A DNA stretch of 55,491 nucleotides from assembly GCA_021845825.1 (NCBI GenBank), contig JAJZVF010000001.1, forward strand, positions 1 to 55,491. Reading direction: 5' to 3'. Under the pieces are notes generated by a model. It saw only the letters and a program-made list of their open reading frames with translations. It did no database searches and was not told the origin of the DNA. This stretch comes from Pseudomonadota bacterium. GTDB lineage: Bacteria; Pseudomonadota; Gammaproteobacteria; Steroidobacterales; Steroidobacteraceae. Position 1 is the stretch's first letter. Every line of letters starts with the position of its first letter. A program made the position numbers and the translations under genes. Of this stretch, positions 5,935 to 19,981 are shown piece by piece.

Positions 5935-6876
5935 ATGGTCGGTGAGCCGATGAACATCTGCGTGTTGGGCGGAACCGGCTTCGTCGGAACCGCCCTCGTC
6001 AACCGGCTGGCACGGGACGGACACTGGGTCGTGGTGCCGACCCGCAATCCTGAGCATGGCCAGCATCTGCGCGTGCTGCCCACTGTGGAGTTGGCAACGG
6101 CCAACGTGCACGACCCGAGCGCGCTCGACCGCCTGGTCACCGGCATGGACGCGGTCATCAACCTGGTCGGCATTCTCAACGAGCACGGCCGTTGCACTTT
6201 CCAGCTGGTGCACGCGGCGCTCGCGCAGAAGCTGGTCGCCGCTCTGAAGGCCGCGCGGGTGCGGCGGCTGCTGCAGATGAGCGCGCTGGGTGCCGATACC
6301 GGCGCCCCCAGCCGCTATCTGCGCTCCAAGGGCGAAGCCGAGGCGCATATCCGCGCAGCCGCCGCACACCTGGATTTCACCATCCTGCGTCCGTCGGTCA
6401 TCTTCGGTCCCGGCGATTCGCTCACCAACCGGTTCGCGAATCTGCTGCGCCTTTCCGGCGGTTTTCTGCCGCTCGCCCGCCCCCAGGCGCGCTTTTCGCC
6501 GGTGTACGTGCACGACGTCACGGAAGCTTTCGCTCGCGCGCTGAGCGACCGCAAGACCCACGGCCAGAGCTATGAGCTCTGCGGCCCGCAGGTGATGACT
6601 CTCGAGCAGCTCGTGCGCACCACCGCGCAGGCGGCGGGCCTGCGCTGCCTGCTCTTGGGGCTCCCCGACCCGATCGGCCGGCTGCAGGCGGCGCTGCTCG
6701 GCGCGTTGCCCGGCAAGCCGCTGACACTGGACAATTTCCGCTCGCTTACCCTTGACAGTGTCTGCGCCGACTCCGGATGCGAGCGCCTCGGCATCGCCCC
6801 GCGCACGATGGCGCAGATCCTGCCCGGCTATCTTCCTTCGCCGGCGACCCCGGGAAATTCACGAGCAATGGCGTGA
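5935..6876 (+). CDS. NAD(P)H-binding SDR, complex I NDUFA9-subunit-like family
   Basis: N-terminal Rossmann motif VLGGTGFVG and the overall NDUFA9/epimerase-like pattern. GGAGGA lies 6 nt upstream of ATG 5935. Confidence 0.85.
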   Translation: MVGEPMNICVLGGTGFVGTALVNRLARDGHWVVVPTRNPEHGQHLRVLPTVELATANVHDPSALDRLVTGMDAVINLVGILNEHGRCTFQLVHAALAQKLVAALKAARVRRLLQMSALGADTGAPSRYLRSKGEAEAHIRAAAAHLDFTILRPSVIFGPGDSLTNRFANLLRLSGGFLPLARPQARFSPVYVHDVTEAFARALSDRKTHGQSYELCGPQVMTLEQLVRTTAQAAGLRCLLLGLPDPIGRLQAALLGALPGKPLTLDNFRSLTLDSVCADSGCERLGIAPRTMAQILPGYLPSPATPGNSRAMA

Positions 6877-6938
6877 CCATTCCCTTCCCCCGCGCCGCGT
6901 TCGTCCGCTTCATGAGCCGCCGGTAAACCGCCGGCCCC

Positions 6939-8153
6939 TCAGGTAAGCGCCTGGATGGCCGCCAAGCGCTTCTCGCGCAGCTTCTCGCCGATCGCGGCGC
7001 CCGCAAGCCCCTGACGCTCCGCTCCCGAGAGGCTGACCGCCGCCGCCGCCGAGCGCATGCGCCGCAGGTATCGGCCCTGGGGGTAGGGTTGGGCCTCGAG
7101 GCCAGCGCGTCCGCGGGCATCGGCTTCGCACGCCCAAAGCAGCTCATCGAAGCGCTCGGGCCGCCGGAAAGCGTCGGTCACCTCAAGCAGCCTGAGCGCC
7201 GCGGCCGGCCGCAGCTCCTGCGCCCGATGTACCAGCGTGTGATGACGCGCGGTGAGCAGCGCGAGGTCACGATATTCGTTCGGCACCTTAAGCCGCGCAC
7301 ATAGCGCTTCGATCGCGGGCACGCCTCCTTCCTCGTGACCATGGTGGCTCGGCCAGCGCTCGGGCGCGGTGAGTGCCTTGCCCAGATCGTGCGTCAGGAC
7401 CGCAAACCGGACGGTCGAGGGCAGACCGGCCCGGGCCGCCCAGCGAAGCGCCAGCATGACGTGCATGCCCGTATCGACTTCCGGATGCCACTTCGGCGGC
7501 TGCGGGACCCCGAAGAGAGCGTCCACCTCGGGAAAAATAAGCCGCAGCGCACCGCATTCGCGCAGGGTCTCGAAGAACACCTCGGGACGGGCTTCCCCGA
7601 GCGCACGCTCGGTCTCCTGCCAGACCCTCTCCGGCACCAGCGCTGCGAGTTCCCCGGATTCGGCCATCCGGCGCATCAGCGCAATGGTCTCCTCCGCCAC
7701 GGTGAAGCCGAGTTCCGCGTATCGGGCAGCGAAACGCGCCACACGCAGCACCCGCACCGGATCTTCGATGAAGGCCTCCGACACGTGGCGCAGCAGGCGG
7801 ACTTCGAGGTCCCGCCGTCCCCCGTAAGGGTCGATGATCTCGCCCGAGGCACTTTCGGCCATCGCGTTGATGGTCAGATCGCGCCGCCGCAGGTCCTCTT
7901 CCAGCGTCACCTCCGGAGAGAATCGGGTCTCGAACCCCCGGTAGCCCGGCGCCACCTTGCGCTCCAGGCGAGCGAGCGCGTATTCCTCGCGGGTTTTCGG
8001 ATGCAGAAACACGGGGAACTCCCTGCCCACGGGCACATAGCCCTGGCGCTCGAGATCCTCCGGGCGCGCCCCGACCACCACCCAGTCGCGCTCCTTGACC
8101 GGCCGCCCGAGCAGCCGGTCCCGCACCGCACCGCCGACCAAGTACACTTGCAT
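6939..8153 (-). CDS. cca: Multifunctional CCA tRNA nucleotidyltransferase (with HD domain)
   Basis: [16 protein letters not shown]...RDLTINAMA head domain plus a C-terminal HD region (LTHDLGK). Confidence 0.93.
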
Positions 8154-16209: not shown

Positions 16210-18303
<2,094 letters not shown>

Positions 18304-18381: not shown

Positions 18382-18663
18382 TTAGATCCCGAACTTTCCC
18401 AGCGCGTCGACAACCTGCTGCAGGAGTTCGGCGAGGCCCGGGTGATCGGCCTGGAAGCGCACGGCCAGGGATTCGAGGCGCGGAACGTGGCTCCTCACCG
18501 GGCCCGCGCCTTCCCCACCACCGAGCGCGCGATCGATGTCCCGCACCAGCGCCGCCAGGATCTTGCGCGACTCCGGATCGACCGAGCCTGCCTGGCTCAG
18601 CCGCTCATGCACCCGCGCCAGCAGCTCGCGCAGGCTTTCCTCGCTCATCCGCTCTTCGCCCAT
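18382..18663 (-). CDS. DUF4404 family protein
   Basis: SEESLRELLARVHERLSQAGSVDPESRKILAALVRDIDRAL...HPGLAELLQQVVDALGKFGI matches the DUF4404 pattern. Start at ATG 18663, with GGGAG 6 nt upstream. Confidence 0.75.
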   Translation of the reverse strand: MGEERMSEESLRELLARVHERLSQAGSVDPESRKILAALVRDIDRALGGGEGAGPVRSHVPRLESLAVRFQADHPGLAELLQQVVDALGKFGI

Positions 18664-19026
18664 CGGCGGCTCCCGCAACTTTACCTTACCGGAGTGGTCT
18701 GCGGATTCTAAACGAGAACCGCCCGAGACAAGTGGACTCATTACCACCGCCGGCCAGGCGGACTACCTGATGAACGTGCTGGTCGGAAAAATCGCCCGGC
18801 TCGATGAGCTGCTGCGCATGGAGCGCAACCGCATGCTCGGGGTGCAGAGGATCGAGACCACGGTGTGCATGAAGACCATCAAGGCACGCTCATCGCTCAC
18901 GGGGTGCCTGCGCAGCATATCCCGGAACCCTGCGGATGGCCGGCACACCCCGTCGCGCAAGTTGGTGCTTACTGCGGCGCAGGCGGGCTGGCAGTGTCGC
19001 CACCTCGTATCGATGTGTTTTTCCAA

Positions 19027-19425
19027 TCAGGCCAGGCAAATTCCCACAGCCAAGTCAGGGCGGGGAAGCTCGGCATGGCAATTCGAGCATAGCAGCTCGC
19101 ACTGCTTCGCTGCCGCGAGCACCGCCTCCCACGATCGATCGGCGATGGCACGCATGTCAAGCTGGAATTCCTTGGCTCCGGTTGCCTGATGAGAGTCGAT
19201 CGCGCCGAGATTTGCATGACAGCCGCACCGGCTACAACATCCCCCGAACGGCTGGATCAGTTGCCACTTTCTGCCGGCGCCACGCCGCTTCCGGGCTACG
19301 CAGCTCCGAGGGCGGAAATCAGTGCGCTTGTTCCTGGAGCGCCGGCTGCAATAGAGCATTTGGCGCCTGCGCAACGCCTGCTTGCATTGGACGCATTTCC
19401 GTCCGTTCGAGAGCCAGATCGACAA
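19027..19425 (-). CDS. HNH-endonuclease-like protein, with a degenerate first His pair (possibly decaying)
   Basis: KCVQCKQ...YCSRRSR N-terminal Cys motif, then CSRCGCHANLGAIDSHQ...KEFQLD...RSWEAVLAAAKQCELLCSNCHAE. This fits the small phage-type HNH pattern C-x2-C...LDFHH...K-F...SWE...KC-LLC-NCH, but with SHQ in place of FHH. TTG start. Confidence 0.55.
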   Translation of the reverse strand: MSIWLSNGRKCVQCKQALRRRQMLYCSRRSRNKRTDFRPRSCVARKRRGAGRKWQLIQPFGGCCSRCGCHANLGAIDSHQATGAKEFQLDMRAIADRSWEAVLAAAKQCELLCSNCHAELPRPDLAVGICLA

Positions 19426-19473
19426 ATGAGCGAGCCGCAGGCGAGCGCAAAATTCGGCGCAATTGGGCGCGAT

Positions 19474-19482
19474 TGGTATACT
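19474..19482 (+). promoter_or_regulatory. Extended -10 element of the tRNA-Ile promoter
   Basis: TGgTATACT ends 10 nt before the first tRNA nucleotide. The -35 region (TTCGGC, about 19453) is weak. Confidence 0.45.
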
Positions 19483-19492
19483 CTTGCGCTCT

Positions 19493-19845
19493 GGGCCTGT
19501 AGCACAGCGGTCAGTGCAGGGGACTCATCGAGAGAAGGTGCCTGTGCGCGGAAACGCGCACAGTGGACGGGATGAATTCAGGGGAACCGTCGAGCCGGGG
19601 ATTGCGCCCCGGCTCACGGCAATCCTGAGCCGAGCCGGCGGTACACCGCCGGAAGGTGCAGAGACTACCTGAGGGCTTGAGCGCCCTTGATGACAGGCAG
19701 GAGCATCCCGCACCCACACGGATGGAGTGAGTCGCTGAGATCGGGCGGCACATTCCGTTCGCGGGTGAAGAGATAGTCCACTCCCGGCGGAAACGTCGGG
19801 GCAGAGTGAATCCCTTGGTCGTAGGTTCGAATCCTACCGGGCCCA
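19493..19845 (+). tRNA. tRNA-Ile(CAU) (lysidine-type Ile2; Met not fully excluded) interrupted by a group I intron: exon 1 19493-19528, exon 2 19809-19845
   Basis: The joined exons give a 73-nt cloverleaf: acceptor GGGCCTG/CGGGCCC, D arm GCAC-AGCGGTCA-GTGC, anticodon arm GGGGA-CTCATAA-TCCCT, variable loop TGGTC, T arm GTAGG-TTCGAAT-CCTAC, discriminator A. G1:C72 rules out an initiator. C4:G69 and C5:G68, and an anticodon/variable region like E. coli ileX, are present. Confidence 0.85.
19529..19808 (+). ncRNA. Group I intron (IC3-like) in the tRNA anticodon loop
   Basis: P1 has a U19528:G19538 wobble. P2 is CTGTGCGCG-GAAA-CGCGCACAG. P3 pairs CGGGATG with CATCCCG. Core strings: GGCAATCCTGAGCCGAGCC, GGAAGGTGCAGAGACTA, GGGTGAAGAGATAGTCCA. 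P7 pairs GACTA with TAGTC. P9 is CCCGGCG-GAAA-CGTCGGG. The terminal nucleotide is G19808. Confidence 0.85.
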
Positions 19846-19981
19846 TGACCGGACCTGGCGTCCCGATGGCCGAACGGACAGCCGATATTCGTCGATACCG
19901 TACTGCCTTATAGGCCGCAAGCGCCGGTGTTGCTGTATCCCCGGAATTGCGGCTTATCCGGGCCGGCCAGGCGTGGCGAGC

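Follow-up and report, generated by a model that had tools for sequence, protein, structure and literature searches.

An apparent chromosomal ileX orthologue, encoding tRNA-Ile2(CAU), split by an endonuclease-free group I intron in a relative of the Steroidobacteraceae

Gene layout and annotation

The window, by which we mean the whole 55,491-nt stretch of DNA that was analysed, comes from a metagenome contig. Its host is an uncultured gammaproteobacterium related to Steroidobacteraceae, and the sequence is that of an ordinary bacterial chromosome. Positions 19493–19845 of the + strand hold a tRNA gene that is interrupted between nucleotides 36 and 37. The parts of this gene and its upstream neighbour are given below, and all of the coordinates given in the original prediction agree with the sequence.

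16210–18303, + strand: rpoD, the upstream neighbour (Pfam; E. coli K-12 annotation)
19474–19482, + strand: TGgTATACT, a possible extended −10 promoter element 10 nt 5′ of the tRNA, read by eye
19493–19528, + strand: 5′ exon of tRNA-Ile2(CAU), comprising the acceptor 5′ strand, the D arm, the anticodon stem 5′ strand and the loop through U36
19529–19808, + strand: group I intron, 280 nt, with an IC3-like core
19809–19845, + strand: 3′ exon of tRNA-Ile2(CAU), from A37 on, comprising the variable loop, the T arm, the acceptor 3′ strand and the discriminator A73

The 5′ exon ends in ...CUCAU, and CCA is not encoded in the 3′ exon. The ribozyme helices fill the entire 280-nt intron, so that a homing endonuclease gene would not fit, and none was found within or beside the intron. 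The tRNA closes a conserved neighbourhood, tsaD(−)-rpsU-dnaG-rpoD-...-ileX, which has the same order in E. coli K-12, and the split tRNA adjoins rpoD in at least 12 intron-bearing relatives. A consensus scan around the gene gave no full match to a sigma-70 promoter, and no intrinsic terminator was detected on the + strand around it. The possibility that the window is a copy of a mobile element was rejected, since BLAST of the locus against plasmids gave no match and against phages the sole match was a 62-nt core stretch of Synechococcus phage S-SRM01.

Default bacterial scans had been predicted to miss the split tRNA, and ARAGORN with default settings does report 0 tRNAs in the window. Under default tRNA finders the AUA decoder would appear to be absent from the genome, despite the presence of AUA in rpoD, dnaG and tsaD. 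The intron mode of ARAGORN, which had been proposed as a check, finds the gene but misplaces the intron upstream by 2 nt and gives the product as tRNA-Gln(CUG). This mode is arguably worse for annotation, since it mislabels such genes as tRNA-Gln(CUG), Arg(CCG) or Ser(CGA), and at least about two dozen genomes are affected among the GTDB species genomes listed.

Identity of the tRNA

The joined exons form a cloverleaf with the anticodon CAT in ARAGORN, and natural intron-less alleles of identical sequence score 72.9 bits with the Rfam tRNA model (gathering threshold 29), so that the joined gene passes as a tRNA in the way that had been proposed. Published criteria for tRNA-Ile2 are G3 or A3 with C70 or U70, plus C4-G69 and C5-G68, while Met and fMet tRNAs have C3-G70; G3-C70 is described as excluding both, and the marks of an initiator are A11-U24 and a C1xA72 mismatch (PMC1635315). 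The acceptor stem at this locus, GGGCCUG...CGGGCCC-A, gives G3-C70, C4-G69 and C5-G68. The initiator features are absent: C11-G24 stands in place of A11-U24, and G1 is paired with C72, the pair on which the exclusion of an initiator was originally based. The closest E. coli match, at 80.8% over 73 nt, is a gene that PGAP annotates as tRNA-Ile with the anticodon CAT. When compared with the tRNAs of K-12 the gene is identical to ileX at 56/73 positions, ahead of metT (49), metV (49) and glnV (47). The published discriminators, the best E. coli match and the synteny with ileX all agree with a lysidine-type tRNA-Ile(CAU), as predicted.

We are confident, if not certain, that the locus is a chromosomal ileX orthologue, tRNA-Ile2(CAU), split between U36 and A37 by an endonuclease-free group I intron for which self-splicing is proposed. 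AUA makes up 10 of 182 isoleucine codons, and rpoD, dnaG and tsaD are among the genes that use it. Decoding of AUA would depend on splicing if there is no other such tRNA gene in the genome. There is no tilS gene within the window.

The splice junction and intron-less alleles

An uninterrupted gene with the predicted ligated sequence is carried by at least 120 metagenome contigs. Two such natural genes, L150 and L192, are identical to the joined exons at 73/73 positions, including the whole of the 5′ exon, where their BLAST HSPs stop at exactly 19528. The alignments of intron-less alleles to the window abut precisely at 19528|19809, and therefore the junction is fixed and the tRNA-Gln(CUG) call is wrong. 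The predicted ligated junction is CUCAU|AAUCC, that is ...GGGGACUCAU|AAUCCCUUGG....

Alleles with and without the intron are both known at one locus. L205 carries the gene without the intron at the same locus and encodes an RpoD that is 94.7% identical to that of the window (590 aa aligned); the intron is also absent at the same locus in L216, and RpoD identity to the window is ~95–96% for these contigs. One further contig, L007, encodes the same RpoD, but the 4 kb downstream of it contain neither the tRNA nor the intron, and this contig was treated as rearranged or chimeric. Among seven strain contigs the split gene is identical in six, and the seventh (L005) differs by a single SNP, 19727 G>T, which falls within P8. 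The intron is kept in every strain contig that has the locus. The intron lineage is sporadic among close relatives, and has therefore been gained or lost recently.

Structure of the ribozyme

The intron can be divided into the following elements.

19526–19540, + strand: P1, in which exon CAU and intron C19529 pair with the internal guide GGUG (19537–19540)
19542–19563, + strand: P2, 9 bp with a GAAA tetraloop, recovered by RNAalifold
19568–19574, + strand: P3 5′ strand, CGGGAUG, pairing with CAUCCCG in a pseudoknot with P7
19578–19628, + strand: P4, P5 and P5a, where P4 (19578–83/19623–28) encloses P5 (19587–90/19616–19) and P5a (19592–19615)
19629–19657, + strand: P6 (19629–31/19655–57) and P6a (19635–41/19646–52, loop UACA)
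19661–19667, + strand: P7 5′ strand, G, bulged A19662 and GACUA (19663–67)
19668–19697, + strand: extra hairpin at the P7.1 position, outer stem CCUG/CAGG and inner stem GGGC/GCCC
19704–19710, + strand: P3 3′ strand, CAUCCCG, 7 perfect bp with 19568–74
19713–19765, + strand: P8, 53 nt, basal CCC/GGG, then ACGGA/UCCGU and an apical GUCGC/GCGGC stem
19774–19779, + strand: P7 3′ strand, UAGUCC, partner of the 5′ strand (UAGUC at 19774–78)
19780–19782 with 19805–19807, + strand: P9.0, in which J7/9 ACU pairs with AGU and would position the terminal G
19783–19800, + strand: P9, 7 bp with a GAAA tetraloop
19808, + strand: terminal (omega) G, at the 3′ splice site

A search with Rfam gave a significant match to the group I intron model RF00028 over its full length (model positions 1–253), with a score of 52.7 bits against a gathering threshold of 50 and an E-value of 1.3e-10. 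This is the sole Rfam match across the 55-kb window. The penalties for two insertions leave the score only 2.7 bits over this threshold. Together with the intron-less alleles, the match substantiates the prediction of a 280-nt group I intron splitting the anticodon loop. The minimum free energy of the intron has a z-score of −7.2 relative to 200 shuffles.

To follow covariation we used 18 full-length gammaproteobacterial ileX introns from different species. Across these sequences pairing reaches 94.3% over the 73 pairs of P1–P9, P9.0 and the extra hairpin, while in a control with the partners slid, pairing drops to 35–45%. Compensatory changes occur at 29 pairs, the observed values being reached by 0/500 shuffles, and RNAalifold independently recovers the nested helices. 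The predicted P1–P9 structure thus has the backing of its homologues. The helices of the catalytic core, P1, P3, P4, P6 and P7, are essentially invariant, and so fit the model but give no covariation signal.

All four P1 pairs (C19526-G19540, A19527-U19539, U19528.G19538 and C19529-G19537) are invariant in 18/18 sequences, the U19528.G19538 wobble being the pair at the 5′ splice site. P2 has compensatory changes at 9/9 pairs. P3 is 100% paired in the 18 sequences, with one pair varying between U.G, C-G and U-A. P4 is 100% paired and P5a has compensatory changes, and the MFE fold concurs with both. P6a is 100% paired, with compensatory changes at 4/7 pairs. P7, which by analogy would be the guanosine-binding helix, is invariant and 100% paired in the 18 sequences and agrees with the Rfam consensus AGACUA / AUAGUC. 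P8 is unusually long, the corresponding element being ~14–60 nt in relatives; one compensatory change occurs among its otherwise conserved basal pairs, and the helix is seen in the MFE fold. The covariation of P9.0 is strong (ACU/AGU, ACG/CGU, GCG/CGC and GCA/UGU), and this helix was found unprompted by RNAalifold. In P9 6/7 pairs have compensatory changes and the GAAA loop is invariant in 18/18, as is the terminal G.

The 30-nt extra hairpin between P7 and the P3 3′ strand is an insertion relative to the Rfam model. It is found in 18/18 gammaproteobacterial ileX introns, with covariation in the inner stem, and its 3′ strand bears a conserved asymmetric loop, UUGAUGA. Its role is likely to be that of a peripheral tertiary stabiliser. 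A resemblance of CUGA ... UGAUGA to box D / box C led us to consider a kink-turn, which was rejected: in the homologues the G of the putative sheared G.A pair varies between G and A, and a second G may be replaced by any other base. L6a (URCA) and the internal loop of the hairpin were also inspected by eye for loop-loop pairing, and their variation is not correlated.

Proposed splicing pathway

The biology of group I introns suggests the following pathway for this gene. Transcription would give a precursor of ~353 nt, in which the intron would fold into P1–P9 and the guide GGUG would pair with exon CAU and C(+1), so that the 5′ splice site is marked by the U.G wobble. P7 would bind an exogenous guanosine, which would then attack after U19528. 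P9.0 would bring the terminal G19808 into the guanosine site, and the free 3′-OH of U36 would attack after G19808, so that ligation of ...CUCAU with AAUCC... restores the 73-nt tRNA. RNase P, 3′ trimming, CCA addition, TilS and IleRS would act afterwards, TilS converting C34 to lysidine to give a tRNA-Ile2 that reads AUA. By analogy with other group I introns, the window intron very probably excises itself.

Alternative explanations

The locus might instead be a tRNA pseudogene holding a decayed, non-splicing relic of an intron, with AUA read by another tRNA-Ile2 or by a tRNA-Ile(UAU). Such decay would sit well with an Rfam score that is barely over threshold, with a long P8 that is specific to the window and might be a disruptive expansion, and with neighbouring genes that show decay and indels (an Lrp/AsnC remnant). 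We nevertheless consider a relic very unlikely, as the core strings and helices of the window are all intact, being identical or compensated when compared with 17 homologues of different families, and the L9 GAAA, P9.0 and the terminal G are also intact. Moreover the exons match functional-looking uninterrupted genes at every position, and the seven strain contigs conserve the gene, with their single SNP in the apical region of P8. A different role for an intron that is spliced would be regulatory, with splicing efficiency limiting, in some conditions, how much of the AUA-decoding tRNA is available. The circumstantial points in its favour are the AUA codons in essential genes, the retention of the intron in all strain contigs with the locus and the residence of phage relatives in highly expressed genes such as psbA. 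We give this reading hardly any weight, since no sensor-like element was found and the absence of the intron at the same locus in L205 and L216 is better fitted by a neutral, selfish element.

It is extremely unlikely that the gene is not tRNA-Ile2 at all, but tRNA-Gln(CUG) or elongator tRNA-Met(CAU). The Gln reading comes from the output of ARAGORN -i, a tRNA-Gln(ctg) whose 280-nt intron lies at position 36, and the Met reading from the fact that ARAGORN labels any CAT anticodon Met. With a CUG junction, the base at the 5′ splice site would be C instead of U and the ligated sequence would read CUCUGAAUCC, whereas the natural intron-less alleles, with HSPs abutting at the U36/A37 boundary, read CUCAUAAUCC; the tRNA-Gln(CUG) call is ruled out by the splice-site rule and by these alleles. 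Introns at CAU|A are all misplaced by ARAGORN in this way, by 2 nt, and whether Gln, Arg or Ser is called follows the last two intron bases. The tRNA body is also closer to E. coli ileX than to glnV, metT or metV, and the locus is syntenic with ileX. As for the Met reading, G3-C70 is described as incompatible with either Met or fMet, while Ile2 typically has C4-G69 and C5-G68 (PMC1635315).

Relationship to known introns

The Azoarcus pre-tRNA-Ile intron is known to self-splice (PMC13168695), and its guide rule is that the IGS GUG pairs with CAU, the U that ends the exon forming a U.G wobble (PMC2241849). The window intron resembles it in host gene, in its site right after CAU, in the GUG/CAU guide and U.G wobble, in helix order, in the GAAA loops on P2 and P9 and in having no endonuclease gene, so that the predicted insertion at the Azoarcus site, directly after CAU and with the same GUG guide, holds (PMC2241849). 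Unlike the compact Azoarcus intron of ~205 nt, that of the window is 280 nt long, its P8 is extended and a conserved hairpin separates P7 from P3′. The ~75 extra nt that had been counted relative to Azoarcus do not form a single insert, being divided between the hairpin at 19668–19697 and the elongated P8 at 19713–19765.

Azoarcus-like loci (L013, L111, L032 and L053) read AGACUA-GACGGCACC, with P3′ right after P7. The label Azoarcus-like rests on the presumed sequence of the Azoarcus intron, plus its published length, site and guide. We take the 11-nt tetraloop receptors in P5 and P8 of the Azoarcus intron to consist of CCUAAG and UAUGG; both CCTAAG and TATGG are absent from the window intron and from all 18 introns of the gamma lineage. 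Core identity to the Azoarcus-like introns L013, L111 and L053 is ~50% in an approximate alignment, the lowest of the groups compared, while identity to the window's own gammaproteobacterial group in a similarly approximate alignment is 77%. The original prediction, which held the core strings to be nearly the same as those of Azoarcus, overstated this kinship. Judged by sequence, only the insertion site is common to the window intron and the Azoarcus intron.

In Acidovorax and Burkholderia a tRNA-Ile2 gene is apparently missing because it is split by a group I intron, as reported with tRNAscan-SE 2.0 (PMC8450103). Three Burkholderiales introns, L041, L050 and L054, share the CAU|A site and the GGUG guide with the window, but differ in having their own hairpin at P7/P3′ (GGGUG-UGAGGAGCCRAUCCRAUAAG-CACCC) and a core identity of ~58%. 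From their taxonomy we infer that these are the introns of the tRNAscan-SE 2.0 paper. Group I introns in tRNA-Ile2 genes have already been published from Azoarcus, Acidovorax and Burkholderia and the arrangement is known from many bacteria, so the weight first given to this locus was too high, introns that hide tRNA-Ile2 having been reported in several proteobacteria (PMC8450103). What the present analysis adds to the known tRNA-Ile2 introns is a well-supported gammaproteobacterial lineage, with 18 full-length sequences and a structure backed by covariation, and a peripheral hairpin that is now tied to the cyanophage psbA intron family; the understanding of how such introns work is unchanged.

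The pattern CCUGRG-stem-CUURAUNACAGG right 3′ of P7 is present in the window and throughout the gamma ileX introns, and viral contigs with it number at least 120, the S-PM2 psbA intron among them. The cyanophage S-PM2 psbA family shares the exact module of P7 plus hairpin, AGAGACUA-CCUGRG...CUURAUNACAGG, and has a similar P4-P6 core; P3′ after the hairpin is also similar, being GCGUCC or GCGCCC in this family and GCAUCC in the window. One contig, L374, matches the region of the S-PM2 psbA intron at 90.4% identity. Core identity to phage introns with the same hairpin is ~60%, with a best value of 72%, the alignment again being approximate. The phage introns differ in their AT-rich genomes, in their protein-coding hosts (psbA, terminase-, polymerase- and capsid-like genes) and in their guides and targets, and are reported to move with the help of a free-standing endonuclease (PMC6083498). 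We suggest tentatively, and with more doubt than conviction, that the gamma ileX intron arose by a separate colonisation of CAU|A by this S-PM2 psbA-like phage class and is not an Azoarcus derivative. If this were the case, at least three distinct sub-lineages would have invaded tRNA-Ile2 independently: the compact Azoarcus introns, those of Burkholderiales with the UGAGG...AUAAG hairpin and those of the gamma lineage with the CCUG...UURAUNACAGG hairpin. The hairpin would then be a transferable tertiary module in place of the 11-nt receptors of compact introns, and the presence or absence of the intron among near-identical loci would point to ongoing endonuclease-free mobility, for example by reverse splicing.

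The IC3 introns of cyanobacterial and alphaproteobacterial tRNA-Leu(UAA) and tRNA-Arg(CCU) also lie in the anticodon loop and have the same core strings as the window, GAGCCRAG...AAGGUGNAGAGACUA. They differ from the window intron in tRNA and in position, and most are compact, with P3′ following right after P7.

A group I intron in a tRNA-Ile(CAU) gene

The presence of a tRNA-Ile(CAU) gene split by a group I intron is confirmed, with the following parts.

19493-19528 (+): exon 1
19529-19808 (+): group I intron, 280 nt
19668-19697 (+): extra hairpin of the intron, 30 nt, between P7 and the 3' strand of P3
19809-19845 (+): exon 2

The sequence agrees exactly with the original prediction for 19493-19845, and the coordinates it gave for P1, P2, P3, P5a, P6a, P7, P9 and the terminal G19808 are all right. 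The Rfam search proposed with it (Intron_gpI, RF00028, full model) matches 19516-19800 (+) at 52.7 bits, above the gathering score of 50 (E = 1.3e-10), and this is the single Rfam match across the whole 55-kb window. The predicted fold of the 280-nt intron (-148.4 kcal/mol, z = -7.2 against shuffles) contains P2, P3, P4, P5/P5a, P6/P6a, the extra hairpin, P8 and P9. There is no room for an endonuclease gene inside the intron and none lies beside it.

Default tRNA scans had been expected to miss the gene, and ARAGORN in default mode returns zero tRNAs for the whole window. Joining 19493-19528 to 19809-19845 gives the predicted cloverleaf with anticodon CAT in ARAGORN, while the intron mode of the same program finds the split tRNA with the intron set 2 nt upstream and calls tRNA-Gln(CUG). 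To decide the junction we searched for the predicted exon-exon sequence in metagenome contigs. An uninterrupted gene with YAGTGCAGGGGACTCATAATCCCTTGGTC is found in at least 120 contigs; among the matches listed, two (L150 and L192) equal the joined exons at 73/73 positions and 19 further alleles differ at one D-loop base. The uninterrupted sequence identical to the joined exons scores 72.9 bits with the Rfam tRNA model (gathering score 29). BLAST alignments of the window with intron-less loci end at 19528 and restart at 19809 with exactly abutting subject coordinates, and since the first and last bases of the intron are unlike the adjacent exon bases, the indel cannot be shifted. A CUG junction, giving tRNA-Gln(CUG), predicts CUCUGAAUCC; the intron-less alleles instead read CUCAUAAUCC, and this junction was rejected.

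Loci that carry the window's hairpin and are called Gln(CUG), Arg(CCG) or Ser(CGA) by ARAGORN all read ...GACTCAT/C...GGTG...G/AATCC (slashes mark the junctions), and are tRNA-Ile(CAU) genes with an intron at the window's site. Which of the three is called is set by the last two bases of the intron; because helix P9.0 covaries, introns end in UG or CG, and the 2-nt error therefore yields Gln, Arg or Ser calls. The practical value of these results is mainly as an annotation warning. Every CAU/A group I intron was set 2 nt too far upstream in intron mode, in the window (19527-19808) as at L014, L035, L036, L044, L045, L073, L081, L089, L099-L102, L115, L117, L118, L120 and L122.

Identity and genomic context of the tRNA

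Among all complete E. coli genomes the best match of the joined exons is a tRNA-Ile annotated by PGAP with anticodon CAT (80.8% over 73 nt). Identity to K-12 ileX is 56/73, compared with 49 for metT and metU, 49 for metV, 47 for glnV and 48 for glnU. According to Silva et al. (PMC1635315), G3 or A3 with C70 or T70 indicates tRNA-Ile(CAT) and not Met or fMet, C4-G69 and C5-G68 are common among tRNA-Ile(CAT) and needed by E. coli TilS, and A11-T24 is a mark of fMet. The window tRNA has G3-C70, C4-G69, C5-G68 and C11-G24. Its gene order is tsaD(-), rpsU, yqeY, dnaG, rpoD, DUF4404(-), an Lrp/AsnC remnant and the split tRNA, that of E. coli K-12 is tsaD(-), rpsU, dnaG, rpoD, mug(-), ileX, and at least 12 related genomes also have rpoD next to the tRNA with the intron. 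Best match, ileX identity, acceptor-stem pairs and synteny all agree with the lysidine-type tRNA-Ile(CAU) first proposed; judged by these sequence features, the split gene is an ileX orthologue and the predicted lysidine-dependent decoder of AUA, a codon used for 10 of the 182 isoleucines encoded by five genes of confident identity (rpoD, dnaG and tsaD have one each).

The D stem, GCAC/GUGC (19502-19517), is uncommon, most relatives having GCUC/GAGC, and no CCA end is encoded (19845-19850). This pair of traits is common to L120, L081, L086 and more than 100 metagenome alleles that lack the intron, and marks a distinct clade. Between rpoD and the tRNA (approximately 18536-19502), the regulator gene of the Lrp/AsnC family looks degraded; the 188-aa gene-caller ORF at 18936-19502 has no Pfam match. 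Strains L004/L005 have approximately 247 bp more in this region (6499-6745), and the metagenome contig L007 has an intact 151-aa gene of the family (6678-7133).

Covariation among related introns

A pattern of two core strings, GAGCCRAG ... AAGGTGNAGAGACTA, found at least 120 loci in GTDB contigs (one genome per species), and among the matches listed most lie in tRNA genes (Leu-UAA, Arg-CCU, Ser, Asn, Phe, Thr) of many phyla. We aligned 18 gammaproteobacterial tRNA-Ile(CAU) introns, hereafter gamma ileX introns, including that of the window, from Steroidobacteraceae, Woeseiaceae, Lysobacter, Rhodanobacteraceae, Pseudomonadales and others, and projected onto them a structure derived by hand. 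In this alignment 94.3% of cells are paired, against 35-45% in a slid-partner control, and 29 pairs show changes on both sides, with 0/500 shuffles matching the observed values. Covariation is seen in P2, P5a, P6a, P9 and the extra hairpin's inner stem; P1, P3, P4, P6 and P7 are invariant, which fits the model and carries no covariation signal. Without the hand structure RNAalifold found the same nested helices and one more, a 3-bp P9.0 pairing J7/9 (19780-19782) with the three bases before the terminal G (19805-19807), with clear covariation (ACU/AGU, ACG/CGU, GCG/CGC, GCA/UGU).

RNAalifold also pairs GGACU-CAU of the 5' exon (19521-19528) with AUAGUCC in the region of the P7 3' strand (19771-19779), GACU being common to the anticodon stem and the P7 5' strand. 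This pairing is invariant and so carries no covariation evidence; it may be a coincidence or an alternative conformation of the precursor. Group I introns would be unusual in archaeal tRNA genes; the IC3-type core pattern was also seen in archaeal-labelled contigs, L021 and L052 (Pacearchaeota), where it appears to lie in tRNA-Asn(GUU), and L078 (a Methanosarcinaceae MAG). These labels are possibly binning errors.

The extra hairpin and P8

The approximately 75 extra nucleotides originally noted are present, but are not one element: they comprise the 30-nt hairpin and, separately, a long P8 of 53 nt (roughly 14-60 nt in relatives), in which the sole strain-level SNP of the split gene falls. 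The hairpin occupies the slot that in other subgroups is named P7.1. Its outer stem (CCUG/CAGG) is invariant, its inner stem covaries and its loop on the 3' side, UURAUNA, is conserved; it is present in 18/18 gamma ileX introns and absent from Leu-UAA introns, alphaproteobacterial Arg-CCU introns and the compact Azoarcus-like introns (L013, L111, L032, L053), a group putatively assigned from the Azoarcus sequence and published length, site and guide. A kink-turn, suggested by its CUGA/UGAUGA look, was rejected as the critical G varies.

In the Azoarcus intron the tetraloop receptors are formed by CCUAAG and UAUGG, and neither string is present in the window intron or its 17 relatives. L9 is GAAA in all 18 and presumably docks elsewhere; the conserved loop of the extra hairpin is, speculatively, one candidate.

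A different hairpin, with a conserved stem-UGAGGNNCCRAYCCRAUAAG-stem arrangement, takes the same place in tRNA-Ile(CAU) introns of Burkholderiales (L041, L050, L054) and Runella (L121). It was also seen at L049, L062, L069, L071 and L116, in introns of other tRNA-Ile(CAU) and of Leu, Phe and Ile(GAU) tRNAs from unrelated phyla. Patescibacteria tRNA introns have two hairpins there, UCCC....GGGAGUA and then a second, an arrangement which we take to resemble P7.1/P7.2 of the phage T4 td intron.

Relationship to phage and Azoarcus introns

The Azoarcus work already established that group I introns can lie in the anticodon loop of bacterial tRNA genes, tRNA-Ile(CAU) among them. With tRNAscan-SE 2.0, fMet or Ile2 tRNA genes seemed missing through such introns in 36 genomes, and tRNA-Ile2 introns were named in Acidovorax and Burkholderia (PMC8450103). 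A non-exhaustive search found no published description of the gammaproteobacterial lineage or its hairpin, which is weak evidence of novelty.

Searching IMG/VR viral contigs for P7 plus the hairpin (AGAGACTACCTGR...TTRATNACAGG) gave at least 120 loci (L373-L492), and among the matches listed some contigs carry two or three copies (e.g. three in L397, 32-2149). The loci are group I introns that interrupt protein-coding genes of phages: psbA unmistakably, with terminase-, DNA-polymerase- and capsid-like genes as further hosts. One locus (L374, 2760-3090) shares 90.4% identity with the psbA intron region annotated in Synechococcus phage S-PM2, an intron familiar from work on 'collaborative homing' (PMC6083498).

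Identity to the window intron, counted over approximately 150-190 core positions of a rough alignment
Gamma ileX introns: 77% mean, 87% to L081
Phage introns with the hairpin: approximately 60% mean, best 72%
Arg-CCU introns: 60%
Leu-UAA introns: 59%
Burkholderiales type: 58%
Azoarcus-like introns: approximately 50%

The likeness to Azoarcus first described holds for the insertion site, which is the same, but not for the core strings, which are not nearly the same (approximately 50% identity in the Azoarcus-like group). The window intron thus has its insertion site in common with Azoarcus but not close ancestry, for which a rough alignment suffices. Corrected on this kinship and on the extra sequence, the original interpretation is supported. 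The introns are also of value as a clean comparative data set for a tRNA intron lineage related to phage introns. Synechococcus phage S-SRM01 (MW015081.1, 209099-209734) matches both the window intron core and an S-PM2-type intron; the record annotates no feature there, and the region is probably an unannotated group I intron.

Proposed splicing pathway

Alongside the observed gene structure, junctions, fold, identity features and synteny, a pathway can be proposed from what is well established for group I introns and documented in Azoarcus pre-tRNA-Ile (PMC13168695, PMC2241849). After transcription of the precursor, CAU(+C) would pair with GGUG to form P1, and a guanosine bound in P7 would attack 3' of U19528. 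G19808 would then be docked by P9.0 and the exons ligated, after which the tRNA would be processed normally, receive lysidine and be charged.

Distribution

The window's RpoD protein is found on 22 metagenome contigs, and seven of the eight examined carry the split gene, identical apart from the one SNP. Uninterrupted genes occupy the same locus in L205 (RpoD 94.7% identical over 590 aa) and L216 (96% over 181 aa), whereas the intron is present in the more distant L081 and L086, the latter a Steroidobacteraceae MAG and the nearest GTDB relative (RpoD 79% identical). The intron is therefore sporadic at fine scale, indicating recent gain or loss. In L007 (ERZ27233562 k141_1801030) an identical RpoD is followed by other genes and a DDE transposase, with no tRNA or intron within 4 kb downstream of rpoD; this contig either comes from a strain with a rearrangement or is an assembly chimera.
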